Both the position numbers and the translations under genes were made by a program. Below, piece after piece: positions 15,837 to 34,823 of a stretch of 64,000 nucleotides of DNA (positions are counted from its first letter, which is position 1; each line of letters begins with the position of its first letter). The notes under the pieces are model-generated. The model was not told the origin of the DNA. It saw only the letters and a list, made by a program, of their open reading frames with translations, and did not search any database. The DNA is taken from NCBI GenBank assembly GCA_000182565.2, contig KQ257460.1. One strand, given 5' to 3'. This DNA comes from Spizellomyces punctatus DAOM BR117 (lineage: Eukaryota).

Positions 15837-18281
15837 ATGATTAATAAATTGAAGGATAGAGGAAAGGACCGACCAAATGACTCGAAATCAGGGAAATCGT
15901 TTCAAAAGGACGAAAGCTCCGCATCCGACGATGTAGAACCGCAAAACGAGTACCTGCCCGTTGCCCGCGACTTGTCCCTTCCTTATATCGTATCTCACGT
16001 CCGCCGGATACCCTTTTGGGATGCTGTCGTATTTGCGGCAAACTCAGCGTTAGGCTTTTACACAGATGCCTTGTTCGCCATGGGTCTAGACAGCGCCAGG
16101 ATACTCTCCATACCGAATGGAAATGGGCCCATGTCTTCTGTCAGAGCCAAGCTGATGCGCGCGGCGGGGAGCGTCGGAAGGAGATCTGGTATTCTTTGGA
16201 GGGTGAGGAAGGGGTTTGAGATATACTACGTCTGCCGTGGAATGCGGGTCCACGTCGAGGAAAAGCACCTCCGATACCCTTATATACTTTACTGGCACGC
16301 CTTGAAGCGGCTACTAAAAGACGACGATGGTGTTGTACTGAGCGACTTCATTGCCGACTTCATCACGGAAGTAACAAACGCAGCACTGGCAATCGCTAAC
16401 CCGCTCAACATGTTGAGATCGAAGCGAAAGTGGTTTGACATCATCTCGGACAACTTTGCTGCTGTCTATAACGTTCTTTTAGTAGAAAATTACGATATTA
16501 TGCTGTCTGCGGTCAACAGTTCCAAATTTCAATTCGTCATTAGAAACTTTGCTCTCGGTACTCATGTGACTGTCAATGGGAGCGACTATGCTGGCAAATC
16601 ATATGCAGGGTTTTGTGTCACGACCTCCATGCTGAGAAGCGCCATTAGACGCATCGCCGGCGGTGGAGCGGACTCTGTGCTGGGCGAACTTTTATTTGTA
16701 AAATTCTTACCACAGCTGACGAATGACAAGGTCGCAGTCAGCGGGTCCGGAGAGTTCAGCTGTGTGTGGGACTGGGCCTATCAAGTTAACCTGTACCGGG
16801 CTCCAAGGTTGGAAGATGCTACGATCAATGTCACCATTATTTTCGACACCCCTGTGGATATTTCGGGACTGTTGCTAAGGATTGCTCTGGAGGAGTCGAG
16901 GTTGCCCAGTTACTTCCCCTTCCCCCCGTTCATTCCGTCCGTCTACCTCCACACATCCGAAGAAGATCTCGATGGCATCATAGCAGATCGTGTTGCGGTG
17001 AGGGCGGGATATGACCACCTGATGGTACACAGGGATGATCCACGACTTTATCACTGCAGCTTTCGCCACAGCAAGGTGGACCCTGACGATCCCATGACAC
17101 GGAAGAAAGAAGACGAAGAACCTCAACGTTTCGACCCACTGGGACCTCCCACTCCTTACTGGTATGTGGGAACAAAGTTCTGTGGTGTCACAAGGCGCCC
17201 AGAGTTAGCCGACTGCATTGCCATCGAGCAATTGTATCAGGCGCATAAAGATATTCGGGACTGTCCTAGTTCAGCCGCATGTCCAAGACCTACACTTCCA
17301 CAATCACGTCCCACTGGGAAAATCAAAGAGCTTACAGGAAGACTCTGGCGCGCTATTGTGGTCGGTTCTTCGGTGCTTTTTGTTTCAAGCAATTTCTCGC
17401 AAGTCGATCTGCTACGGGAGGCTGCGTTAAGAGTTTGCCCAGCAGGACGTGGTAAAGCACTGTGTCAAAGCTGCGCGGACACTGCAGTAATTAGAAATGC
17501 AAACAAACTGGGGATTTTTCAGAACGAAAGCTGGCTGCCAACTCAATTTGTGGAGACTGAGTCTGACTGGTCAGTTGCCATAACCGATGGTGTCATCCGG
17601 GTGATGATGATTGTTACTTCACTGAAGAAACGAACGCGCGCCGCAACCATCTTAGGCGCTGAATCTGTGGTTGTATCAATGGCCAGCGAGGTGGGGAAAC
17701 AGGGTGGGGTAACGCTAGCGCGCGAGCCGGCTGCGACATTTTCTTTAACAGGGCGCCGCACCGCTCAGGCAAATGTCGGAGACTTTATAGCAAAAGACAC
17801 AACGAAGGTTGACGATGCAGCAAAACTTGTGGCACGTGGTGCAAAGTTACCCCCCGATCAGGAGAAGGCATTGCGATTAGCCATCACTCTTGCAGTTCTT
17901 ACTGCTGAGGATACCCCCATTGACGAAAAACACACATGCTGTGCTCCAGTATTACGGGGCAGTAATCCGGATCTGAGGGTAGGCGATCCCGGTCATAGAA
18001 TACTCAATCTGAGGCCGGTCCCCATAACTATGTTGCAGAAGCTTGGGGTGAAGGGATTTACTATCAATGCCCAGTCGATATACCTACAGCATGAGATAGA
18101 ATCTGACGTGATGGCCGCCGTAGAGCTGCCGCCCGTGAACCGGGGTCCCGTCGTGGCCCACTTGAGATATCTAGAACCAGCAACCAACAAGTGCAAACCA
18201 TACCCGTCGGGCGCTCCACCTCCTGCAGGGAGTGCAGACGAGATCTCACTAGCGAAACAGATATTAGTTAGTATTGACTAG
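15837..18281 (+). CDS. Intronless 814-aa hypothetical protein
   Basis: 2.4-kb ATG-initiated ORF with globular composition and several Cys clusters (CPSSAAC, CQSC, HTCC). No family recognised. Confidence 0.75.
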   Translation: MINKLKDRGKDRPNDSKSGKSFQKDESSASDDVEPQNEYLPVARDLSLPYIVSHVRRIPFWDAVVFAANSALGFYTDALFAMGLDSARILSIPNGNGPMSSVRAKLMRAAGSVGRRSGILWRVRKGFEIYYVCRGMRVHVEEKHLRYPYILYWHALKRLLKDDDGVVLSDFIADFITEVTNAALAIANPLNMLRSKRKWFDIISDNFAAVYNVLLVENYDIMLSAVNSSKFQFVIRNFALGTHVTVNGSDYAGKSYAGFCVTTSMLRSAIRRIAGGGADSVLGELLFVKFLPQLTNDKVAVSGSGEFSCVWDWAYQVNLYRAPRLEDATINVTIIFDTPVDISGLLLRIALEESRLPSYFPFPPFIPSVYLHTSEEDLDGIIADRVAVRAGYDHLMVHRDDPRLYHCSFRHSKVDPDDPMTRKKEDEEPQRFDPLGPPTPYWYVGTKFCGVTRRPELADCIAIEQLYQAHKDIRDCPSSAACPRPTLPQSRPTGKIKELTGRLWRAIVVGSSVLFVSSNFSQVDLLREAALRVCPAGRGKALCQSCADTAVIRNANKLGIFQNESWLPTQFVETESDWSVAITDGVIRVMMIVTSLKKRTRAATILGAESVVVSMASEVGKQGGVTLAREPAATFSLTGRRTAQANVGDFIAKDTTKVDDAAKLVARGAKLPPDQEKALRLAITLAVLTAEDTPIDEKHTCCAPVLRGSNPDLRVGDPGHRILNLRPVPITMLQKLGVKGFTINAQSIYLQHEIESDVMAAVELPPVNRGPVVAHLRYLEPATNKCKPYPSGAPPPAGSADEISLAKQILVSID

Positions 18282-20262: not shown

Positions 20263-23200
20263 TCATGATGTCGGAGCTTCAATTGGCGTTCTCAATCGCA
20301 GATATCCTTCAATGGCTGTATAAGGCGCGGCCTCAAATCTCGGGCGCTCATCCACAAAGTCCACTCCCAACTGATAAAAGTTGGTCGTTGGTTTTGCATC
20401 TGTGCCCTTGGTCGTAACATATGGTTGAAGCCACTCCCAGTTTGCCACATTGCTGGCTGGAAAGGGTATTCCCTTCGTTGTTGCTGGCTCTGCATCGACC
20501 GCCTTCGCGTAGGGTGGTACATCCATTGGAATTATGTATGGGCCCATGTGGAAGAAGGCGGTCATCGACTTTAGTGCTTTCTCGAGCGCCCATTGGGGTA
20601 GGAGCAGCGATTGGATCGGGAGGACTTCGGAGTAGGCGTGCACCGCGGTAAACGGGTCTATCAGCATACCAAAGACCGTGAGCTGCTGGTTGTGCAGTTC
20701 TATAAATTCTGAGCCGATTTTTGCCGCTTCAGCCCAGCTGGGTGAAGAATTACTGGAAGCGGCGGGCGCTGGGATCCAGTACGGCTTGAATATGGGATAA
20801 TTCTTATCACCAATCAATTTGAAAGGGCCTTGATCCGTAGGAGACTTTTCAAAGTATGTGTACATCTCCGAGAATTCAAAATCCGGCCCGTCAGAAGCAT
20901 TTCTCGCATTGAAGTAACCGACCAACCCATCGTAGACACGAGCCTTGTCGCCAAACTTTACCCGAAGTTGGTAGTCGAGTAGCGCCAGCTCTGATTTCGC
21001 TTTGTTGTTTATGATTGTAGCCTGGTTCTCAAGTGGTGGATTGGACAATTCAATAGACCAACCCGTGTTGACGAGAGCGAGAGGCTTGCCAATGATAGCA
21101 GAGAGATACTCTGCGTACTGATTCGGCGCGTGGGGCATGTTGTCAAGGGCATCTATGACTACTTTAAAAAAGCCATCCAGGTACTGTGGATCCGCCAGCT
21201 TCTGAACCAAGTAGTCTAGCTGCTGCATGTTTTTAGGGTCGGATGTGCTCGGCTCGAACGGTAACCACCGGGGTGCCGTCGAGGTGCCGTTCCTTGCTCC
21301 CAACCGAACCTCGGTGTAAAATGTCCCGTCTGGTAGGAAGATCTGTAAACCGCGGTCGACATAATTCACGATGAGCCAGCCCCATATCGGATTTTCGTAC
21401 TCTGTAGTAGGGCGCCACTCTTTCGTTTGAGAGTCTCTAACCATAAAGTGAGCATTAACCCGCGCATCCTGATTGAGATTCGGAGGCATCTGTGCGAATT
21501 CACAACTGGTACCACTAGAACCCTTGACTGTTCTTGGAAAAGGCGTAGCCATATCAGGAGAGTTGGGATCTGGTTGAGGACAATAGAATTCGCTCAAGCA
21601 CGGATACAACGACGGTTTGGTCTGGCCAGTTGGGTCGAAAGCGCAAATCGCTTGCCCGAACTTGTCAATTATGTTCAGCTTGGTAAATCGGAATTGTCCA
21701 TGTGCGGCAGGTTTGAATGGATGATACTCTGACAACCCAAAATCATATGCAGCGGCATAAGGTGTTGTTGTGGTTTCGGTGTCCATCTGGCACAGGAGGG
21801 TCTTTGAATAATCGTCAGTTGCCTTGAGTCGGTCCTGAGTGGCCTTGATGACGGCGGCCATAGGTCTGACACTCTCTCCTGGTGGCCGTACATTGGGTTT
21901 AATGTGCGTACCCTGTAGCCTGGTCACAAGGTGATCCCGAAATCCCGATAGTGGAGATGATAGGAAATCTCGTGCCCGTAGGTCTGCCAAAAGGGCCTTC
22001 TGGTCTTCTGCAGAGATGATTTTCTGCAGATCTGGCTGAAAGGTGTTCTTGAAGAGATTGTTCACCTTGGTCTCCAAGCTTAAACTCGCCTGTGGTAACA
22101 GCAGCACCCTCCCTGAAATGGTCCTCACGTTCGTGTCTTCGAGCTTCTCCCCGTCTTTCAACACATACTTAATCTTTGTAACAGGATCTGAACCGACGGC
22201 TTTCAGCTCCCATTTTGTGTAATCAATATGATAGTACTCCACCTCCCATTCTGCAAAGAGCGGGAACCATGGCTGGGTGCCTTGCCATGAATCCCGTCCT
22301 TCCTTGTCATGATAGAGAGGGTATGAACTTAACAACGGGTCGCTATCGGAAGGGGTACGGTCTTGCAATATCCAAAACTCTGAAAACAAGTTCTTGGTAG
22401 CTGCGGCTAGCTCCTTGGGGAGTTTAGCCGATATGCTGTCCGCCCAAGCGCTGAACTCCGCTGGCGGGGGTTGGCTCACACCAGGTGTGCTAGCTGTAAT
22501 CACATGTATGTCCAATCGCACCCGCAGCTTGTCCAAATAATCAACGGGCCATCCAGATTTAATACCAGAAATCAATAGCGTCGGATCTCGCTGTGAGAAA
22601 TACCGGGGGCTCGCCCCCTGCTGCGGCATCCTCCCTTGAAATTCAGTTTGTGCGTTCTTGATTGAAGTGTTTATGAGCTGGGTGGAATTCGTTATTTGCT
22701 TCGTAAGTGCATCAATCCGAGTGGATAGATCTTTAAACTTTTGCTGGTCCAGGACGTGATTAGTGTCGCTGATGACCTTCCACCACTCACTCCACAGCCT
22801 CCACTGTAGCAACTTCCTCTCCTGACTACAAATGTCGACAACCAACTGCATGGCATTCAGATCGCGAAGCTTGGTCAGTACCTCTGTAGGAGGTGCAATG
22901 GGAGATTTCATGCCCGCCCCGTCGTCACCCGACAGATGCCACTGGCTGCCCCCGGGGGAATGCGTGAAGTTGTTACTATACAGCAGGTCCTCAGCTTGTA
23001 TCTGTGAATCTAAATCGTCCTCTGTTTTGCGGAGTAACCTTTCCACCCTTTTGAAATCATCCGCTATCGGCTTTGGCATGTCTGCGTCCTTGCTCTGCTC
23101 ATAAGAGTCAATCAATGCGTACAGGGCATCAAGAGGTGTCGTCCCCAATGACACGGGCATTGTGGAAAAATGGGTTGCTGCGTCGTCGGCGGGTACATGC

Positions 23201-24326
23201 GCAGGTTTTGCATCAACGGAAAACGAGACATTATACATTGCTCCGTGGCAGAGTATCCGAGCCGAGCCGGTCTCTTCTAACCAGGACGGTTGGGGTGCGG
23301 AGGATGGTAGACCGAGAGACATCATGCAAGCGTCCAATCGTGCTGCATGGGTTTGCTGCGCTGTGGGCTGCATGTTGAAAGGGTCGTCCTCAGGCTTCGG
23401 GTGCCAGCCCAAAACATAGTAGCTTGCCTCTGCTTGAGTAAGGTACGCCTTTGTAATCGTGCCAGTAGCAGGATCGGTGGAATCATATTCAAAGTTATCG
23501 AGCATTGAAAAGACGTTCGAGTTGTGAGGCTGGTAGTCTGGAAATAGAGAATTGCTGCTATGCAATATGGACAATGGCACTCGAGCGGCAGTGTCCCCCT
23601 TCTCACTCCATCCCTCAGCGTGCGTCTTTAAGCCGATAAATATCTCTGCCTGAGTGTCAATGGCTGTGTCGTCTTTCTCTGCATTGGTTGCGCATAGGAA
23701 CGGAGATACATCAACCTCCAAGTCAACGCTGGCGTCTAAATCATCAATGTTGCGCAGGCGATCGGATTCAATGACAAACGCTTGGTAGTTGGGAATGTTG
23801 GCGTTTGCTGGTACCTTGGACTTTAGGACTCGCACAATAAGCCAACGTGTGGGAACAGGCCTGAAATTGGGGGTAGAGTAGTCAGCGTTATTCTCGACTT
23901 TGGAGAAGCCTTCTTGTTGCCGCCTCTGTTCGAATTCGTTGGCACTGGACGTTGCTGCAATCCCAGATCGGTAGACCCTGTAACAGAGAAAAGTCTTGGT
24001 TAATACAGTAAATCCTCGAGCAAAGTAAAGAAGAACTTGTACCTCGGCAACATCCAATGCAAATAAACCCCAAACCTCGATCTCCGAAGTTCTTTTGTGG
24101 CCACATTCCTTATTCGGTTATTTACTTCGGGGGATGTTGCATGGAGATCAACATGATCGAGAATATCCGGCTGGATCACCGAAATGTTACGGTCGAGACG
24201 GAGGAAGGTGTAGTTTGGTTGAGTGATTGGGGCGATTTTAGACGGTCCTGAGCAAACACTAGGATTAAGCACGAATGCATCGAGTTTCACCGGAACACAC
24301 ACAGTAGGGTTGTCGCTTGTGGTCAT
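20263..24326 (-). CDS. Module gene A: about 1332-aa uncharacterised protein (2 exons: 24326-24043, 23977-20263)
   Basis: The intron at 23978-24042 (GTACAA...TTACAG) joins VPVKLDAFVLN...GVYLHWMLPR to VYRSG...PVPTRWLIVR...FVIESD. Later motifs: PWFPLFAEWEVEYYH, GQFRFTKLNIIDKFGQ, NPIWGWLIVNYVD, IIGKPLALV, DPFTAVHAYS. The spliced length of 3999 nt is in frame. Confidence 0.9.
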
Positions 24327-24789
24327 TGCAGAATAGGCAGCAACAATGACACTTTTTGCAAGCGGCTTTGTCAGAGGTGATTTACATGCGAACGAGAAGA
24401 GGTCGCTGTGGGTTTGAAGTACTGTTTAAGGTATCCAGCTACAAGAAGGAGCGCAACCTGCTTCATAATCCCCACCCTTCAGCAGGGGGTGATTGCCCAC
24501 ATGAAAGGTTCGCGTGCATAACCCCTGGCCATTCGGTCCTGCGCGCGAAGTAATCAGCCCCAAAAAGCTGCCCAGGTTTCGCTTGCAATCAGGACAGGGG
24601 AGTAGCAGGGAGTGGTTAACGAGCTTGGCGGGTGACAATGGAGAAGGAAAAAAAAAAAAAAACATTATGAGGGCTTTTTGCAAGGAGCCTAGGTTTCGGG
24701 ATCTCATCGTTAATTCATAGGCAGCTTGGTCCACTGAGCTCTTTTTACGTTCAGTTTGGATTTACCACTGCAAGTGAACGCTGCAAACG
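24327..24789. promoter_or_regulatory. Putative bidirectional promoter between genes A and B, containing an A15 tract
   Basis: 463 bp between divergent ATGs. Poly(dA) run at 24648-24662. Confidence 0.5.
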
Positions 24790-27700
24790 ATGCTCGATCG
24801 TCCAGCGAGACAACGTATCCACCGCCATATTCGAACTAAATTCCTTCTCAAGAAGGGGGCAAATGGTGGTGCTAATGATGATGACGGGGACAGACTCCCA
24901 GAACTTCCTCCGGGTCAGATGCAGTTGCATAGCTTCTACGCTCCGGCACTCCTGTCTTCACCTATTCCCTACAAGATCGACGTAACTCAAGTCATCGAAG
25001 CCGATTCCCAGCAAAAGTTGCTCAAGAGTACGCAAACATTTGAGGTGGTCGCTCCCAGGTTTACGCTTGATGCAACCACACAAATCCACTCGCAATATCC
25101 TCCAAACGGACATGCGGATTATGGTACAATACTCCCACACGTCGTTTTGACTGATCCCCACTTGCCGTGGGAACGACAGCCCAGTGTAAATGCTGTTCCT
25201 ACAGAGGCAGGCAAAGAGCGGAATCGCACGCCCTGGCTCGCGTTAGTTGTCTTTGAAACTAGTGAGCTGCAGCTGCCGCTGGCGACCACACCGCCATTGA
25301 TCACCTTCCCGTCCGACGTCACACCCAAGCAATCCAGCACAATGAGTATCAACATGACAATCTCGCAGCTCCGCGCGACGCAGGATATCGTCCATCCTCT
25401 TCCTGCAAATGACAGCACCATCGATCCATCCACAAAGTTAGACGTAATATTCCTCGACCCGAATCTTTTCACCGCTCTCGTATCTTCCTCCCCGGCAAGT
25501 TCAAAGCCCAACTTGGATCGCTACCAACATCTTGCCCATTCGCGTAATGTTAACACAAAATACACTGCGTCGTCGGGTCTTTCCTCGGATAACGGCACAT
25601 TTTCGATCGTCGTGTCTCACCGTACGGGCCCGTTGTCTCTCGACAAGCCGACAAGCTGTGCAGTACACCTCCTTTCCTTGGAGGGTTGGGAGGACAACAT
25701 AACTTTGCCTATTAATTCGACAGCTGTGAGCAGGGTTGCTGTAATCAGTTTGTACAGCTGGAATTACACTTGTCTCCCTCCGCAAAGTATAAATTTCCAT
25801 CAGCTCATGGTCAACCTCGGAGACGAAGCTAAGGGTGGCTACGGGCTGCTTCGTAACTCCATGGATCGCGCAAGCCCTCTAATCAAAGATCGGCTAAACG
25901 ACGGGTACACTCTTCTCAGGTATCGCCTCGCATCCGGAGACGAGACTATCGCCTTCATGCGAGGGCCGTTAACACCTACGTTGGTGCCGTGTCCCCTGAC
26001 ACCCACCTGGCCAACGCATTCATTCTTTTCCACCGATCTTCAAATTTTGGATACCAAACTTGGCGTTATGGACATCACTTATAGTGCAGCATGGCAGCTG
26101 GGGCGTACGCTTGCAATAGCCGACCAGGCCTTTTCCGCTGCGCTAATGCGACTCCGCTCCTCTTTGCACAGTGCTGCTCAGAAGGCCGTGAAGAACGAAA
26201 TCGGTTTGCGTCTGGGGACCTACAAAGGAAAGATGGATAATTTTGAAGCATTGCAGCACGCCGTTGAAGGCTTGAAGGGACTGCACAACGATACCATTGG
26301 GAAGAATGGACCGGACCATCTGAGGAGGTGGTATAGACCATTAGCACAGGCTTCATCGGGCAATGGTACGAACAGCCCTGTTGTTGCACCCATGCCCAAA
26401 GGTCATGCTGCTCTTCGCCTCCACTCCTCCTATTTGCCACATCTCAAGAATCATCTGGTAAAACATGCTCTACTCGATCACAAACACTGTTCAATGAACA
26501 TAATGGTCCCCCGAACTCCAGCGATTGGTCGCTTATCCTCACCTGGCTGCTTGATAAGCTCTACCTACACAATATACCCGCACACTACTTGATACCTGAC
26601 CCTGCCTTTTTGGGCAAAGAAAGCTTGCGCTTCTTTTATATCGATCGGAATTGGACAGACGCTTTGATCGACGGCGCATTGAGTATCGCAAATCATATGG
26701 ACCCGGATGATCAAGTCCGCACGCAAATAAAAGAAATGCTGAAAACGTATTTAAGCACACCCATCGATCCACAAATTGCTAACTATCCGCCCCAGCTCCC
26801 TGTGTACGGCTTCCTACTCCGCTCGGCAATTGTAACCGCCTGGCCGGACCTTGAAGTCCACGCGCCATGGACTGATGCCGCAGCTCAAGCTCGCCGTCTC
26901 GAGGTCATCAGATTGGAAAATATAGCAAAAGATACCATGCTATGCTTACTGGATCGTGCGCCCCAGCCCGGCGGGCAGCTACAGTCCATTCGCTTAAGTC
27001 AACCGGCCCATCAGCAATATTTCGAACTGGATGTAGATGCCCACGAAGAGAGAGCAGCGATGGAGGTAAAGTTTATCGATACCATAAACAAAGGTGCAAC
27101 TTCCCAGACTGGGACGGCGGTTCCCCTAAAGGGTGACGCGGGCAAGCCGGGAGGCTACCTGGAATGGAAGAAAGGAGATGATAAGCCGCAAGTCTTTAAC
27201 TGGGATTCCAGAACGGTTGTTCTGCCATCCCTAGAAAAGGCGATCTTAGATGTCTTAATGCCCTACGACACGATTTTTAAGGATGACACAATGACGGCAG
27301 CGTACATGGGTGTACAGCTTAACTCCCCTATGTTGAATCTTATTTTTGGCAATGGCGAGGTCAGATCGTCCTCAGCAGAAATTCGCGTAGAGCATCCGGC
27401 AAGTAGCGTAAGTCCCGCGCTGTCAGATACGTCAGGTGGAGTCAATCAGGATAGTGCGAACCGAGAATACCTAGAAAGCAAGACATCATCGAAGGACGGC
27501 AGCCTGATAGGGCCTGCTGCTGGTCACAACAACGGATCACTTTCAAGCTCCTTGGGTGCAACTGCAATCCAATTTGATTACCAATGCTTTGACTCTCTCA
27601 CCGGTTCGCTCTCTGTCGGGCAGAATTCACCAAAAGACCTAGTCTTCCACATCACTCCCAGGCAAGCTGGCGCCCCAACCGATTGGCTATTCCTTGAAGC

Positions 27701-27875
27701 GAAGATTAAGATTCCTCGAGGGGAGCAGGCTACGGATCTCATCCTGCCCTATGCTGGGACGGGAGCTCGCATGATCAGTAATCAACGGTTCAATGTGAAA
27801 ATTGAACATGAAAGCAATTACCTCGTCTGTCGCATATTACCCCGATCGACGAGGGTGTGGGTCTTCAACGCATAA
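24790..27875 (+). CDS. Module gene B: about 1000-aa uncharacterised protein (frame change near 26.4 kb; 3' end next to the assembly gap)
   Basis: ORFs 24790-26592 and 26589-27875 read as one protein: FYAPAL, VAPRFTL, LPHVVLTDPHLPWER, PWLALVVF, HLLSLEG, ISLYSWNY, RGPLTP, DITYSAAWQLGRTLAIAD, then WLLDKLYLHNIPAHYLIPDP...ESLRFFYIDRNWTDALIDGALS and GFLLRSAIVTAWPDL. They are joined either by a possible intron (26366-26448) or by a 1-nt indel. Confidence 0.8.
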
Positions 27876-27905: not shown

Positions 27906-28195
27906 NNNNNNNNNNNNNNNNNNNNNNNNNNNNNNNNNNNNNNNNNNNNNNNNNNNNNNNNNNNNNNNNNNNNNNNNNNNNNNNNNNNNNNNNNNNNNNN
28001 NNNNNNNNNNNNNNNNNNNNNNNNNNNNNNNNNNNNNNNNNNNNNNNNNNNNNNNNNNNNNNNNNNNNNNNNNNNNNNNNNNNNNNNNNNNNNNNNNNNN
28101 NNNNNNNNNNNNNNNNNNNNNNNNNNNNNNNNNNNNNNNNNNNNNNNNNNNNNNNNNNNNNNNNNNNNNNNNNNNNNNNNNNNNNNNNNNNNNNN
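27906..28195. other. Assembly gap (290 N)
   Basis: Run of N. Confidence 1.
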
Positions 28196-28252: not shown

Positions 28253-31200
28253 TTAAGCTGCCATAAGGAGGGGGGCTGCCATATAGATATCGTAGAACTC
28301 ATTAAACATGACCACAGGTTTTTCAGGGCTTAGAGTAGTGACCCATCCCGTAGTATCGTGCCATGCATCAATCAGGGATTTGCGGCTAGGAATTTTATCG
28401 TCGCTGCTCCAGATCGTGTACACTTTGTCAAACTGCTCTGGACTAACTACTTGTGCATCTCCTGGTGTCAATAGCGGGGGTTGAGGAAGCCAAGACGGTT
28501 GCGATTGCGTCGTAGGAGGCAGCTTTGGATGCGCGCCGTTGTAAACGTCATACGACATCGCGCTTGCGGCATCGAACGCAGGGAAAGGTTTGTCCGGATC
28601 GGACAGCTTCGGCGGAGGAGCTGACACCGTAATGCCGATCAACGCTTCCATGGTGGTTTCCGTGTGATCCGAATGATCCAGAAGGGTGTCAATCCGATCT
28701 CCACTACTGGGATCTTCATTTGGAGAGTCTACAGAAACCAATGCAAGAGAAATAACGTTAGAAGGCCCGTACTGTGTAAGGAAGAATGACTGGAGATCCT
28801 ACATTTTCCCCAGTTACCCGTCGGCACTTGTTTCCAGATGGGGCTGAATTGGAATCCGCTTACAACTTCTGATGTGGGGCCTGTGACAGATACGTCCAGG
28901 ACGGAACTCAAGGGTGATTGGAGTTGCATTGGCTTGGCAAAGACATTCCTTCCAACCTGTACGGGATTCGCCTGATCCTGACGATAGGTAACCGCAGAAA
29001 CAAGGAATTTACTCTCGATTCGGAAGCGCAGGATGCCAGCACGAACACTCCATTGGGCCCCTCCTTCTGTCACCATATCCTTCTTGTGATTAGGTTCGTA
29101 ACCACTTTCAACAGTCAAGCGGTGGTCTGCTGTTTTGTCATCAGTTAAATTCAGGTTTGGGTCTCCAGCTCGTAGAGACTTTGGAGTATTTGTATCCTGC
29201 TGCAGGAGAAGCTGCCAGAACTCCTCGAGTTTAAGCGCCGGTGGCCTACCGGGTCGTGGTCCAAAATGTATATCAAATCCAAACACCCAAAAGTCAACAT
29301 GGACAACTCCTCCAAACTCGGGACCTTCCAGCTCGAGCATGGCGCCAATGTCAACCCGGATATGGATCGTACAAATCCAGAGGTCCAAGGTGAATGCTAC
29401 ACCGACAGATATGCCGATGCTACCTAAACAGAGGGCGAAGAGGATTTGCAATGCATCTTTTCTGAAAGTGGAGGTTTGAACTTACCCTTAAAATGGAATG
29501 GGGCCCAGTTGATGAGAAAGTCGGCATGCTCCTCGAAATGGGCTGACAGTGGCCCGCAAGACAGCACCGCAGCGAGGCGCCCTCCACCCATGCACATTTT
29601 TGGAGTTACTGCAAAATAGGCCTCTCCTGTAACAGATAGGTTGCGGTCGAGCTGCCAAGATATACCGAGCCGCTTTGGGTTCGGATAATAGGATGGCCGG
29701 ACGAATGCTGGATGATATCCTCCGATTGTAAAGACAAAGTCTCCGGCTTGCAAAGAAGGCGAGAACCAATAGTACAGTGCAAAACCACCTCTCAAATGGC
29801 AGGACGGATGGAGGACGAATGAATTTGGCGATAGCTCTGCCTCAACTGACATGAAGCCAGCATGCAGCTCAACGCGACAGCTTATCTCCAGTTCAGCATA
29901 CACAAAGCAATTCTGTCTTGGCGTCTTGGCTGGAACACTACATATTGCCTTCGCGAATACGCCGAGGGAGACGTACGGGTTGAACTCCAAGACCACCAAA
30001 GCTTGAACATCTAATACTTGGAATGCTGTCACCTCCAAGCCAGCAGCTATCCAAAGCGACTTCTCCTGGGGTGAAATCCAACCACCTGGTGTCGAGTTCA
30101 AAGATTCGAGCAGCACCATAGGGTCATTTCCTGGCATCGGAACGTTGTTGCCAATCAAGGGAAATGACATTACCTGGTCGACGCTGGGGTATTTCAGATT
30201 CGAATTGTAGCCAAATCCAAGGCTAATGCCTGTGATTTCGGCAAATTCGAGTTCGATCAAAGGACCATTCAGTTTGGCAAAAACAAAGAAAGTTTTGAAA
30301 GTCGCAGTGCTCGGGTGGGTCGCATCGTGAGCCTTCCCGTAAGATCCAAACGCAAGGAAAGAATATGGCGCTATCGCTATGACGACACCACCATTATACT
30401 GTTCGACATCAGGGGAAGACGTTTTCTGAAAAATTCCAGCGATTGTGACTGGAGGTTGCATATACTCAACCCCAAGGCCAGATAGGGTAATATCGAGATC
30501 AGGGTTGGAGAAGTCAGTGAGGGCAGACAGATTCACGCCGATTCCGAATCCGAGTAGTGCCATCTCGATCGGTCCTATGTGGACTGATGCGTCAAGCAGC
30601 ACGTAGAGTTTCTTGTTTTTGTATTGCAAGCCAATATTCTCAACGGACAAGATCCCGTCAGATTTGTGGAGCGGCGACTTTGTCGCTCCAGCATCTTCCG
30701 TATCTCCATCTGGTGTTCTCCCAGAACGGAGCGTATTCGCTTTCGCGCTTCCTGTTTGCTTCCCAAAAACGTAGTCCAATACGACACCGCTGTTGCTCTC
30801 TGTAAGCAGGACATGGGATCCTGGCAGTAACACAACATCAGTTTTCTTTGGGCTAACGCTTGTTAACTTGTATTTTAGGTAAGAATAAGGATCAGGAACA
30901 GCTGTATTGATCACACAGACATCATCAGCGGTTAACCCCATGCTGTTCTCCGAAGGTTGGATCCACAGATACTCTATTTCATCGACAGGCATGGAGAACG
31001 AGGGCACTAGAGGTACAGAGTGTGGAGTCGGAATACCCAGAACACAGTGGACCATGCGCTTCGGAGGAGCGGTCATGTCGGTATTTTGGATTTGAATCAA
31101 CGAAAGATGGAAGTCTTTCGTAGGAGATAATAAAGCATATAGGACGATGCTGTTTGAGGTCGTTGACTTTGAACAACCTAACGAGAGATTGAAGCTATCT

Positions 31201-34200
31201 CGATCAAGCTCAATGTTGTTCACAAGGTCAGGTAATAAGTCGGTATTCCCAAAATATCCAGCTAGTACTTTCCCAGCGGTCAAGTCCGTTGGGACGGCAC
31301 GAGGATCGTCTTTTCGCAGATCAGCTTTAAAGCTCCAAGTCTTGTCTTTCTGATACGCGTAGGTGAAAGTAAGTCTGACCCCGCCAATATCCAGGGTACC
31401 ATCAAACGTGAAGTTGCTTCCAGTATCCTTCTCGTAATCATATTGCAAACCAAGATGCGGCACCCGTATGTGCTCAAGGAGGCTCATAACGGCTTGACCG
31501 TCGTCAAAGAAACTGTATAGCACTCCTAGGTTTACGTCAAACGCCTCACCAGTCAATTGCCACTTCCCGTCATTAAAGGAAAGGGCAACCGACATGGAAG
31601 TACTGCCAGCACTGCTATCCTTCTTATCCTCCTTCGGTCTCGGCGAGAGGGTAATGTCGGCATGCAAAGATAGTGACAGACTTTTTTTCCTCCAATCATA
31701 TCTTGCCTGAAGATCCACTTCATCAAGTGAAATGGGTGTCCAGTTTTTACCGCCATTGTCCGTTGCCACACTTGGCTCATCCGCAAGGATAATACCTGAA
31801 AAAGCGATACTATCCGGGTCGATGGAAAGGGTCGCCAGAATGACATCAGTTGGGAGACCTGGCGGCTTTGTAACAGCACCCTTTGCATTGGGATTCAAGT
31901 TAGCGAGGCATATCGAGGAGCTATACGACTCGCCAGGACCGAGTGGGCTCGGAGTCAGAAGGCGATAGTCCTCGTAGTCTGGTAGCTTCTGCAGCAATTC
32001 CACAAAAGGTTGATCAGGTACCATCCAAAGCGAGCCGCTAAACGAGTTTTTAGGCCAAGTATATGAAAGGAGGAATACTGGCTTTTCCCTTTCCGTATTT
32101 CCTCCAAATTTGAGGATCAGCTCGAAGTCAATAGTGAATTCAGACGGCTTCAGGTTGTTGTCGATGGCTATGTGTGCGCGTAGGAGCCTCAATGATCCGT
32201 GGTCGTTCGGTATCCATTTATCTACATCAATTGTTCCGGATGAGCAAGTGCTTGCGAGCCATTGTAGTATTTGAGACAGAGCAATTCCGTCGCGCCATTG
32301 CAAGGTCAAGATTGTGACGTCCGGGTTATAATCCAGAAAAGCGTCCATTTCAAAATCTTTTGCCTTGAGCGTCATCGACAAGATAAGCTCCGGGACGCTT
32401 TCAACCACAATACCGTCGCTATAAGGACAAGATGTCATCGTCTTGCGGGCTACTACCTTTGCCCCAGTTACCGAGACTGCGCCAGAAAAAATCGTTCCAA
32501 TGGCGCCGTTGATCTTGTTTATGGTTTCCGCTGTTGCACTCGCTTCAAGCCTGATAACAGTCAGATAGTTAGACTGCGGTACGAACCAGAGACAATTCCG
32601 TGACTTTGGATCAACGTTAATTTGGAAAGTCAGATCATCCGCTAACCGCAGCATATTAATCTTCTCTAAATTGAGAAAACGTGCAATATCTTGCATCGAA
32701 CAAGCAAGCACGGCGGTGGTGGGCTGCATGCGGAGATGCAGCATAACCAATTCACTGTCGATACCCTCCCCTGCGCTGTTTGACGTAAAGTATGTTATCT
32801 CTCCATTTGCCGGCTGCCCTGGAAGCCGCAGACCACAAGTGAAAATGACGCCCCCCGTCGAATCAGTAGAAACATATGTTCCGTCAAGTCCGCACCAGCG
32901 TAGCCAGACTGATAGCTCATCTTCGTTCGGATCCAGCGCGGTTCCCGGAAGAGCGGTTACCATTGGCCCTGTCAAAGTCAAATATCCGAATGATAAAGAT
33001 CCTATAAGAACATCCAGAGCCTGTGGCAGCGAGGCTAAGGCGCTTTGCATGCCTGGAACTGGGTCCACATAGCTACTTAAGATAAAGGTCACATTGTCAT
33101 TCGCTACCACATCCGCAGCTGCAAGCGTAACGAGGTTCTCGACCGCTGACGGTGTCGGACCTGTACGGACGGTCGCCGGAACCTCCATCTTTGCGCGGAG
33201 CTCTGAAAGGGACCGGCGCCTTTTCTTGGTAACTTTTCCTATTACGTCAGTAGCTGTTGCAGATGCGATAGGCGCAGCGGCATTAATGCTTGCACGAGCA
33301 GCTGCCCGTGGGGGCTGAACTCTTCTTGGGGGAGGATAGAGTTTCGTAGTCTTAATTTTCCTTCTGAACATAGCTGGAAAAGGAGGTTGGTTCTCGACGC
33401 CAACCACGGTAGATCCGTTATATAAGAGCTGAAGCTTGATGTAGAGCATTGTCGTTGACCCCACAAAAGGGTGATACTCCTTCCCTACTGTGGATAGTGT
33501 TGCCCAAAAGCCCGCTGTTTTTTCGTAAAGCCATGCTTTCATATCCCCAATGGTCGCCTTTGGCTTTGCTAGTCGCTCGGTTTCGAAAGCTGTTTTCAGC
33601 GCATTGCCATCCAGGGCTTTCAGGGCATCTTGGAACTTCACGTTTATTGGATCATTCTCAGTGAACGGATCCAGCGAACCACTTCTGTCAGTATACGCGA
33701 ATGGCCACTTTACGGTGTCAAAGGCTTCCACCAGGTAATATGGGTAGCAAGTCGCGTAGACATTAAAGGTCGGAGGGTTGTTTTTAGCGCGATATGCATC
33801 CAAATAGCATAAAAGTGGCCAGCCTGGATGTCCATATTCTGTGTACGCTGATATAATGATATTACTTGGCTTTAAGCCAGTGATAACCTGCGTTGGTGTG
33901 GAATACGTAGAGCCGTGATGGCTAGCCTTAAGGTTGGGAACCTCCACCGGCCCATCACGGTTGATCCACCGGCAGACCTTGTCCTCCATTGAGTAGTCAG
34001 CATCACCCGCGAGGTAGTGGGCGACACGCACAGGATTGGTAGGCCAGATGACAAGCAAGAAAAGCGAGTACTTGTTCCTCTTTGATGAGTCTGGTTTGTC
34101 CACCACCGTAAACATTGCAGGTCCTAAGCACTGTTCATTGCCAGCCACACAATACAAACCCGGCGCCACTATAGGTCCGTAATCTTTGTTATGGGCTCCT

Positions 34201-34823
34201 ATCAACTCTTTCGGACTTTTAATGTCCTTAGGGCTGGTGGTCGACAAACTACGGTCGCTGAACAGTTCGGTGCCAAGGAAAACGTCAGCGCGGAAACTGT
34301 TCCGCTCCAAAGTCCTGACTTTCACCACGCGTTCGACTTTCGCTTTCGCTGCTATCAGCGACAATTCGTGAGTTTTGGGATCCACTTCCCCGCCCACCAG
34401 TCTAACACCGCCTTTTTCAAGATCGTCATCAGCAGCGTAAGGGGCGTAGAACGTGCTTGTCGGTGCCCCCTTGTCGTCGTATTTAAGACGTGTGCACTGT
34501 GGGGCTGTCGAGCTCAAACCGTCTAGGAGCAAATCAAACAGCCCACGATAGTGATCATCATCCCAATGGGTCAGTACCACAGCATCGAATTTCAACAGAG
34601 CGGTAGAGTCCGCAGCGTACGGTAGATACTTCTGTTCTATATCCTTGATAGCATTCTTGATTACTTGGTAGGCGTTAGGGCTTTGGCCTCCATCTGCCAG
34701 TACGGCCGCCTTGACGGTGCCAGAGATGACCCAAGTGGTGGTAGTGGTATCGACGAGCAAGTATATCGTGCTATCGCCGGTTCCTATATTAACATGAAAT
34801 ACATCTACACGGGTATTGTCCAT
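28253..34823 (-). CDS. Module gene C: about 2144-aa protein with an N-terminal ComEC/Rec2-type metallo-beta-lactamase domain, a beta-rich middle and a C-terminal DUF6603-like domain (exons 34823-29486, 29423-28803, 28728-28253)
   Basis: MBL motifs NIGTGDS, VLADGG, LTHWDDDHYRG, LAGDA, LKASHHGS and ISAYTEYGHP. DUF6603-like motifs ITGISLGFGYNS, WIAAGL, GDFVFTIGGYHP and GEAYFAVTPKMCMGGGRL. Introns at 29424-29485 and 28729-28802 give an in-frame 6435-nt CDS. Confidence 0.9.

Follow-up and report, generated by a model that had tools for sequence, protein, structure and literature searches.

A ComEC/Pce-type metallo-beta-lactamase domain on a fungal DUF6603 protein as the probable head of a three-gene cassette common to bacteria and fungi

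The stretch of Spizellomyces punctatus DAOM BR117 DNA considered here (64,000 nucleotides (nt) of contig KQ257460.1, hereafter the window) carries on its minus strand the gene SPPG_06058, or gene A, which encodes a giant protein with a DUF6603 domain (PF20248). Judging from sequence comparison and a structural model, the N-terminus of this protein is a metallo-beta-lactamase (MBL) domain of the ComEC/Pce branch, a putative two-metal phosphodiesterase or nuclease with an intact metal site. We consider it probable that this domain is an optional enzymatic head, likely a DNase, of a conserved and uncharacterised cassette of three genes, A, B and C, that is common to bacteria and fungi. The domain itself is a new member of a known enzyme branch. 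A full-text literature search found no paper on DUF6603 or PF20248, and both the use of MBL as an exchangeable head on a three-protein cassette and the clustering of that cassette in fungi appear to be undescribed in the literature searched.

The N-terminal domain of SPPG_06058

An open reading frame (ORF) of 1799 amino acids (aa) at 29424-34823 on the minus strand, with its start at 34823, is 100% identical to the first part of SPPG_06058, the three-exon, 2144-aa protein named by NCBI. It contains all six MBL motifs that a first-pass annotation of the window had listed (Table 1). The span given there for the domain, 33790-34823, corresponds to aa 1-345 and does enclose the motifs; the folded domain extends somewhat further, to about aa 360 (33744).

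The same annotation had named the domain as ComEC-type, an identity borne out by both sequence and predicted structure. A profile made from the domain and 8 relatives was searched against PDB sequences at E<=1. It matched seven, six of which are ComEC MBL domains, the best being 9ic4 (E 2.9e-8), and the THPDADH, HHGS and GHP motifs of ComEC were aligned to the domain. In an AlphaFold2 model of the domain (pLDDT 76.6, pTM 0.83), the top Foldseek match is again the ComEC MBL domain 9ic4 (E 3.3e-8). The model superimposes on it with Z 19.7 and an rmsd of 3.1 A; the alignment, with an identity of 23%, takes in 233 of 266 residues and spans model residues 3-361. The phosphorylcholine esterase Pce comes second (Z 18.2, rmsd 3.2 A, 236 residues, 20% identity). 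Z reaches 8 or more for 500 of the 1000 PDB chains that were re-aligned and the 50 rows listed are all MBL-fold proteins, everything other than ComEC and Pce attaining Z 13.8 at most. The model has the alpha-beta/beta-alpha sandwich characteristic of the MBL fold.

MBL enzymes follow a common scheme of metal motifs: Asp (motif 1), HxHxDH (motif 2), His, Asp/Cys and His. Here motif 2 is the HxDxDH variant, as in ComEC. The metal-site residues are D17, D44, H86, D88, D90, H91, H269, D274, H302/H303 and H332. All 11 are retained in 69 of the 84 relatives with a full-length domain. H269 is substituted in 10 of them, and H86, D90, H91 and D44 are invariant in all 84, at about 30% overall identity, which points to selection for catalysis. 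The domain is ~125 residues longer than that of ComEC, chiefly between HxDxDH (aa 86-91) and H269, and these extra residues are in part modelled with low confidence (pLDDT 51-68 over aa 130-180).

Among the PADLOC models, the MBL domain of the window matches LmuA (9.7e-12), RTasMBL (3.5e-8) and Avs1a (5.5e-5), its closest models there, which represent MBL genes accompanying Lamassu, DRT and AVAST; coverage is partial and the models have no stated cut-off. A bacterial relative encoded beside a DUF6603 gene (locus L063) matches defence MBL models at about 1e-19. The domain of gene A is most likely a DNase. Separately, its C-terminal half (aa 247-340) matches PHROG 7043, annotated 'tail protein', at E 3.6e-6, so some phage tail proteins seem to carry a ComEC-like MBL.

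Between the MBL domain and the core shared with other DUF6603 proteins lies a linker that begins with a helical stretch and continues as a low-complexity stretch rich in Pro, Ala and basic residues. The latter includes a basic patch, KKRRR (aa 533-537, 33213-33227), which resembles a nuclear-localisation signal. The linker differs widely in length among fungal homologues. In those bearing MBL, the first match past aa 400 of SPPG_06058 starts at their own residue 336 to 1282; in those without it, similarity to SPPG_06058 begins at ~aa 560-742. DUF6603 itself is recognised by Pfam with 446 bits in exon 1 (profile 1-381, aa 1385-1782) and 64.1 bits in exon 2 (profile 380-488), above the gathering cut-off of 27, the whole profile being covered by continuing over intron 1. 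In tblastn, bacterial DUF6603 proteins match positions 28492-31817 of the window. A simple hydropathy scan, made with no dedicated signal-peptide predictor, detected no signal-like or transmembrane segments in the proteins of the window; the sole hydrophobic stretch in the gene A protein is one beta stretch.

Table 1. Positions of gene A, its domains and motifs, and genes B and C in the window
Feature	Position	Strand	Basis or remark
Gene A, whole (SPPG_06058)	28253-34823	-	spliced translation identical to the annotated 2144-aa protein
Gene A, exon 1	34823-29486	-	sequence
Gene A, intron 1	29485-29424	-	sequence; 62 nt, GTAAGT..TAG
Gene A, exon 2	29423-28803	-	sequence
Gene A, intron 2	28802-28729	-	sequence; 74 nt, GT-AG ends
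Gene A, exon 3	28728-28253	-	sequence; stop codon included
MBL domain, ComEC/Pce type, aa 1-360	33744-34823	-	motifs, PDB profile matches, AlphaFold2 model
GTGDS motif, aa 14-18	34770-34784	-	sequence
ADGG motif, aa 43-46	34686-34697	-	sequence
THWDDDH motif, aa 85-91	34551-34571	-	sequence
AGDAD motif, aa 272-276	33996-34010	-	sequence
SHHGS motif, aa 301-305	33909-33923	-	sequence
YGHP motif, aa 330-333	33825-33836	-	sequence
Linker from MBL to shared core, about aa 361-740	32604-33743	-	sequence and homologue comparison
DUF6603 (PF20248), aa 1385 to ~1910	29053-30671	-	Pfam; split by intron 1
Gene B	24790-27875	+	two long ORFs, 24790-26592 and 26337-27875; convergent with gene A
Gene C	20263-24326	-	1264-aa ORF 20263-24057 and upstream matches to 24326; divergent from gene B

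The cassette and its upstream slot

Searching species-representative prokaryote genomes with back-translated DUF6603 motifs yielded 324 confirmed loci. The best 80 of the 324 were analysed; they include Streptomyces, Acidobacteriota, Bacteroidota, Vibrio, cyanobacteria and others. The bacterial A protein is mostly 1300-1850 aa long. Two Vibrio loci (L004, L005) and one from Pyrinomonadaceae (L070) encode A proteins of 3173-3174 aa, with ~2070 unannotated residues before DUF6603, and each of the three is headed by a class-3 lipase gene. Downstream of A come B, of about 780-1100 aa, and then C, of about 1200-1600 aa; the bacterial B and C proteins fall in a single BLAST family.

The window holds counterparts of both. 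In phmmer searches, the ORF at 24790-26592(+) matches 79 of the 80 bacterial loci (best 3.5e-45), that at 26337-27875(+) matches 76, and that at 20263-24057(-) matches 67 (best 7.8e-39). Conversely, tblastn with the bacterial B/C family finds 24781-27341(+) and 20275-24326(-), the latter as two segments, 20275-23922 and 24042-24326. By these comparisons gene B is homologous to the bacterial gene directly downstream of DUF6603, its two ORFs presumably joined over a short intron, and gene C to the giant gene that comes next. Genes A (stop at 28253) and B (stop at 27875) converge on an assembly gap of 290 N at 27906-28195. The short interval that separates the divergent genes C and B includes position 24665, where 38 molecules of RNA run X6 terminate, perhaps a transcript end or start.

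Neither gene B nor gene C belongs to a family of Pfam, NCBIfam, PADLOC or PHROG. PADLOC and NCBIfam have no family for A either, and no PHROG corresponds to any of the three cores, the matches in these proteins being limited to Ig-like repeats in B and C of one locus (L001). The ends of cassette proteins carry, in various members, TIG domains, CoaZ repeats, beta-propellers or H-type lectin domains. One more large ORF of the window, of 814 aa at 15837-18281(+), has no Pfam, NCBIfam or PADLOC family and no relative in the 80 bacterial loci or in 48 metagenome loci; because nothing like it was found near any cassette, it was left out of the cluster.

A model of the A protein of L001 (aa 99-1298; pLDDT 74.8, pTM 0.52) shows antiparallel strands of 12-18 residues over the DUF6603 domain, with pLDDT 85-95. 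Foldseek against the PDB returned LptD, SlpA, ApoB and other large beta-sheet proteins, all with TM 0.03-0.29, and a search of BFVD gave TM of at most 0.29. Kinship with porins (VIA-align wide, Z up to 13.8) was considered and rejected, since the rmsd is mostly 11-17 A and only model residues 483-882 are aligned. We read the modelled DUF6603 core as a long up-and-down beta-meander that is not porin kin.

The position just upstream of A behaves as a slot. It was surveyed in the 74 of the 80 loci whose A gene lies away from a contig edge. A hidden Markov model (HMM) of the fungal MBL matches a separate ORF adjoining the DUF6603 gene in 18 bacterial loci and, in L015, the N-terminus of the DUF6603 protein itself, a fusion of 2337 aa; four more upstream genes have HxDxDH and HHG at the proper spacing, a classification made by motif only. 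Altogether 23 of the 74 loci are MBL-linked. Elsewhere the slot holds trypsin-like proteases (4 loci) or class-3 lipases (3), members of two unknown families (4 and 3 loci, respectively), genes with one weak enzyme match each (3 loci: LCAT-like, M91-like, and eCIS_core with a weak PLC-like hit) or other unknown genes (13); in the remaining 21 no same-strand gene lies within 200 nt. Several of these assignments exceed the Pfam cut-offs: Trypsin in the head of L002 (31.5 bits), Lipase_3 in two upstream heads (63.2 and 105.4 bits) and eCIS_core at the N-terminus of the L071 head (84.9 bits). The other three trypsin-like heads are either slightly below the Pfam cut-off (two) or have no Pfam match (one). 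Gaps between head and A are mostly -40 to +28 nt. No small ORF or immunity gene was seen between them, in a survey made with no dedicated immunity-gene predictor.

Streptomyces klenkii and S. hesseae each have one MBL-headed cassette and one headed otherwise, and the MBL-linked bacterial loci are scattered on the tree, needing 13 changes. The presence of different enzymes, their mixture within species and this scatter indicate that the bacterial slot is exchangeable. The MBL heads themselves are not uniform. Alignment reveals that the Streptomyces-type heads have no His at the final GHP and none equivalent to H269, whereas the fungal domains and the cyanobacterial head L068 keep HP at the GHP position; the bacterial heads thus form at least two subtypes.

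Among metagenome contigs scanned with the fungal-type MBL motif, 48 loci were collected, 25 of which match the window queries. An A core lies downstream of MBL on the same strand in eight. On seven contigs B and/or C stands beside a fused MBL-A gene, in gene orders unlike that of the window, and two of the seven (L090, L094) show frame hops over intron-like gaps of 50-110 nt. The clustering of A, B and C is seen both in bacteria and on contigs of eukaryotic type. Four further contigs (L104-L107) encode distant MBL relatives (22-24% identity) with the same THWDxDHY motif and have no DUF6603 within 10 kb of them. Pfam, applied to 8 neighbouring ORFs of L104 and L106, recognised only a SAP domain, in an ORF that follows in L104.

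The head in fungi

A search with aa 1-480 of SPPG_06058 retrieved 12 long proteins, 11 of them with DUF6603; the genera matched are Sphaerosporella, Rosellinia, Trichoderma, Amanita, Podospora, Arthrobotrys, Colletotrichum, Orbilia and Fonsecaea. With aa 1-400 as query, eight short proteins consisting of MBL only were found. An orthologue from another species of Spizellomyces shares 74% identity with SPPG_06058 over aa 1-480 and 97% within the DUF6603 domain. Two collections were made from the DUF6603 side: 3498 cluster representatives at 50% identity (E<=0.001), the best 150 of which were examined, and 517 DUF6603 proteins of similar length, of which the closest 120 were examined.

The first-pass annotation had described the domain as a swappable payload, with an N-terminus likely to differ between homologs. 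This stands for the family as a whole, as the bacterial head genes do vary, but not for the fungi. Among the closest 120 of the 517, MBL is present at the N-terminus in 56 and absent from 64 (five of which are fragments of less than 1400 aa), and no other N-terminal enzyme was found. Tabulated in this way, the fungal N-terminal domains are not polymorphic. The N-termini of 19 MBL-less forms were compared with the MBL-bearing forms, and 18 align to the region that follows MBL in the latter; the other (P0096) is of low complexity and without a match.

Among the best 150 of the 3498 representatives, 48 stretches unmatched to SPPG_06058 were considered as new N-termini and rejected, since they represent either the sequence that follows MBL or truncated ORF calls. 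Pfam, run on 25 proteins with such stretches, found no N-terminal domain, its matches being confined to C-terminal H_lectin in two. An example of a truncated call is P0127 (1864 aa). It shares 98.6% identity with residues 422-2266 of an MBL-bearing Sordaria protein of 2428 aa and falls in one 90% cluster with this and a 2460-aa Sordaria MBL protein. Several seemingly different short N-termini were discounted because they are truncated ORF calls of this kind on eukaryotic contigs.

A FastTree phylogeny of the DUF6603 domain with 193 rows (79 bacterial, 114 fungal) places all 114 fungal rows on one side of a branch with support 100. Within the fungi, 46 proteins without MBL form a clade of their own (support 100) inside MBL-bearing lineages, which points to loss of MBL. 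For the closest relatives listed, the sequences thus suggest that the fungal DUF6603 protein either starts with MBL or lacks an N-terminal enzyme, loss being the predominant change.

Other observations concern individual fungi. P0087 (Dactylellina haptotyla) and P0096 (Xylographa trunciseda) are MBL-less and have two or three C-terminal H-type lectin domains, a parallel to the binding domains of bacterial cassette proteins. In Amanita phalloides, one contig of 730,935 bp carries several DUF6603 genes (P0008, P0217, P0016, P0181; tags 002192, 002206, 002209, 002210). The product of tag 002209 consists of MBL only, with 542 aa; that of the next tag, 002210, is an MBL-less DUF6603 protein of 1572 aa, in which the initial 60 residues correspond to aa 562-621 of P0008. 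The two are either a split gene model or a gene pair of the bacterial style.

Interpretation and comparison with known systems

On the reading that we regard as probable, in which MBL is the optional head of the A-B-C cassette, bacteria encode the head as a separate gene just before A, with different enzymes at different loci. In fungi the MBL head has become joined to the N-terminal end of A by a long, variable and partly disordered linker, and would later have been lost in one large clade. The fusion in fungi and in one bacterium suggests that head and core are physically coupled, while the 21 bacterial loci with no upstream same-strand gene and the 46-member MBL-less fungal clade suggest that the head is optional. 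MBL would be the damage-dealing effector, and A, B and C, large beta-rich proteins, would provide targeting or control. The proposal of the first-pass annotation that an effector is fused to a carrier is to be modified: MBL does look like an accessory module of a larger conserved protein, but this carrier is not alone, being one of three clustered giants.

Such an effector may work in two ways, which we hold about equally probable. It may cut the cell's own DNA after a trigger, as do autoinhibited MBL pro-nucleases; the matches to defence-type MBLs and the lack of visible export signals and immunity genes speak for this. Alternatively, the enzyme may be delivered into another cell as toxin cargo; in favour of this are the end domains of binding type, the eCIS_core domain, and the heads that are lipases or resemble phospholipases. 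A link with injection systems is disfavoured by the finding that the sheath family PF04984 and DUF6603 are on different contigs in all four genomes that have both, although this is weak evidence since the assemblies are drafts. It has also to be considered, as a doubtful though attractive extension, that DUF6603 A-B-C is a new class of conflict machinery of bacteria and fungi, with a latent nuclease released on target binding and a cluster kept from chytrids to Dikarya. The nuclease might then be held by the ~125-residue insert or by tethering to A, and set free once a binding domain on A, B or C engages its target.

A number of results weigh against the probable reading. The MBL domain falls short of the cut-offs of the established families: Pfam Lactamase_B (PF00753) gives 16.9 bits against 22.7, over aa 28-99 only; TIGR00361 (ComEC_Rec2) 25.2 bits against 190, over model positions 556-642 of 663; and NCBIfam Avs1a (NF041809) 21.2 bits against 420. 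PF00753 is nevertheless annotated on some relatives in precomputed tables, and bacterial heads pass its cut-off (L063 35.1 bits, L068 28.2 bits). For A, B and C no match to a family or fold that would show function was obtained (TM <=0.29; rmsd to porins >10 A). An HMM of the trypsin-like heads, run on the bacterial cassette genes and on the fungal proteins collected, recognised only its own four members among the former and none of the latter; no GDSGG-type motif was seen in seven A proteins inspected and no Pfam protease domain in 12. With no trypsin-like domain found in these A proteins or in the fungal proteins, the activation route of the defence MBLs has no visible counterpart here. One eukaryotic genome locus was inspected in full. 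From one RNA run labelled as this species, about 6% of the reads were used; 176 fell on 15.2 kb and gave no splice joints, a number too small to speak for or against the introns or expression. Three further RNA runs were tried as evidence for the introns and set aside; they look like DNA because their contigs are collinear with the genome across intron 1. Finally, Pce is nearly as near to the domain in structure as ComEC, so the substrate could be a phosphodiester other than DNA.

This last point also speaks for an explanation that we consider unlikely, namely that MBL is a working part and no weapon. As a phosphodiesterase of the Pce kind, it would trim some polymer of the wall or membrane, or act on a substrate so as to let the A-B-C assembly bind or pass, the other heads (protease, lipase, phospholipase-like) being envelope-opening enzymes. 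It would suit the protein and lipid targets of these other heads and the glycan- or surface-binding types of domain on cassette proteins. What decides us against it is that the PDB sequence matches are mostly ComEC nuclease domains and do not include Pce, that the PADLOC matches are defence nucleases, and that the fungal protein has no export signal in the hydropathy scan. The absence of such a signal, or of a transmembrane segment, in that scan also speaks against the view that fungal DUF6603 proteins are polymorphic toxins whose N-terminal enzyme varies by homologue. The length before DUF6603 does range from ~120 to ~1970 residues among the best 150 of the 3498 representatives, and the equivalent slot is truly variable in bacteria. 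The near-even division between MBL and no enzyme in the closest fungal relatives, the 18 of 19 MBL-less N-termini that match the post-MBL region, the lack of any N-terminal Pfam domain in 25 proteins and the truncated ORF calls such as P0127 nevertheless make this quite improbable.

Still less credible is that MBL is catalytically silent, a pseudo-enzyme serving as a structural or docking module. The extra ~125 residues with their poorly modelled portion and the replacement of H269 in some relatives might be taken in this sense, as might the report that similar defence MBLs are inactive until cleaved (accessible portions of PMC12799240 and of bioRxiv 10.1101/2025.09.03.673762). Against this stand the complete set of metal-site residues in the window protein and in most of its relatives, and the four invariant sites. 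Contamination with bacterial DNA or a faulty assembly might be suspected: the genes are long and contain hardly any introns, their closest non-fungal relatives are bacterial and an N run separates genes A and B. Yet the DUF6603 frame needs two GT-AG introns, upon whose removal the translation equals the annotated protein. The window also encodes an FGAR amidotransferase, an ATP synthase subunit, the ER protein Pkr1 and an ankyrin protein, and its GC content is even (0.45-0.53); these ordinary eukaryotic genes and the even GC argue against contamination. Furthermore, the source contig is 1,008,920 bp long, the second Spizellomyces species has an orthologue and the 114 fungal rows stand together behind one fully supported branch. 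We regard the probability of such an origin as negligible.

DUF6603 is numerous, as the 3498 cluster representatives and 324 confirmed prokaryote loci attest, and the MBL head, as the only part with readable chemistry, gives experiments a first point of entry to the cassette. A bacterial-type three-gene cassette clustered in fungi would be a notable multi-gene module common to domains of life. If the ComEC-like nuclease is an effector, the effector logic of bacterial immunity would extend to eukaryotes. Were the conflict-machinery proposal true, the fungal fusion would be the first equivalent in eukaryotes of the MBL pro-nucleases that serve as effectors in bacterial immunity, acquired together with its whole three-gene machine. 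If the enzyme is inactive or merely accessory, the finding shrinks to a domain annotation of an orphan family.

Several known systems resemble the cassette in part. Fungal NLR-type proteins are cytosolic proteins that contain an NTPase and carry an N-terminal effector domain. The gene A protein is likewise a predicted cytosolic giant with an enzymatic N-terminus and a large centre, and with C-terminal binding domains in some relatives. Unlike the NLR-type proteins, it has no NACHT, NB-ARC or other NTPase by Pfam; its centre is the beta-rich DUF6603 and it belongs to a three-gene set. In polymorphic toxin systems, a variable toxin domain is found at one end of conserved homologues, together with an export or trafficking domain and an adjacent immunity gene. 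A variable terminal domain was not found in the fungal proteins listed, and in bacteria the variation is between separate head genes. What the cassette does share with polymorphic toxins and with the cargo of extracellular contractile injection systems (eCIS) is a fixed machinery with exchangeable enzymes (nuclease, peptidase, lipase), one of which, the L071 head, bears eCIS_core. It differs in that the enzyme comes first in the operon or in the protein, where those systems have it at the 3' end or C-terminus, that no immunity gene was seen between head and A, and that no PHROG corresponds to the cores. According to the accessible portion of PMC8213781, DUF4157/eCIS_core marks toxins of contractile injection systems, in which long linkers lie between marker and toxin.

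ComEC/Rec2 (9ic4) has the same fold and the same set of motifs, GxGD, DGG, HxDxDH, D, HHGS and GHP, and its MBL domain is reported to be a metal-dependent nuclease in the accessible portion of PMC8579336. The gene A protein is without the OB fold and the multi-pass transmembrane competence domain of ComEC; its MBL domain, with the additional residues, is N-terminal on a giant fungal protein that is probably cytosolic. Pce/CbpE of Streptococcus pneumoniae (1wra, 2bib) belongs to the same ComEC-like sub-branch and, unlike the gene A protein, is secreted and has choline-binding repeats.

A parallel in gene arrangement is with the MBLs of Hachiman, AVAST, Lamassu and DRT defence systems. As described in the accessible portions of PMC12799240 and of bioRxiv 10.1101/2025.09.03.673762, the defence MBLs (HamM, trypsin-MBL module) are DNases blocked by two loop insertions, which lie over the active site and are cut on activation. 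Their genes precede the core gene, and a fused trypsin-like protease sets the enzymes free. The bacterial DUF6603 head likewise has a gene of its own immediately before that of a large core protein and would serve as an add-on effector, and the DUF6603-linked MBL also has extra sequence relative to ComEC. The partner is different, DUF6603 in place of a helicase, STAND, SMC or RT protein, and no trypsin-like protease was found fused to it in the A proteins inspected. In the fungi, moreover, MBL is fused to its partner, whereas the accessible portion of PMC12799240 has the defence nuclease always as a separate gene.

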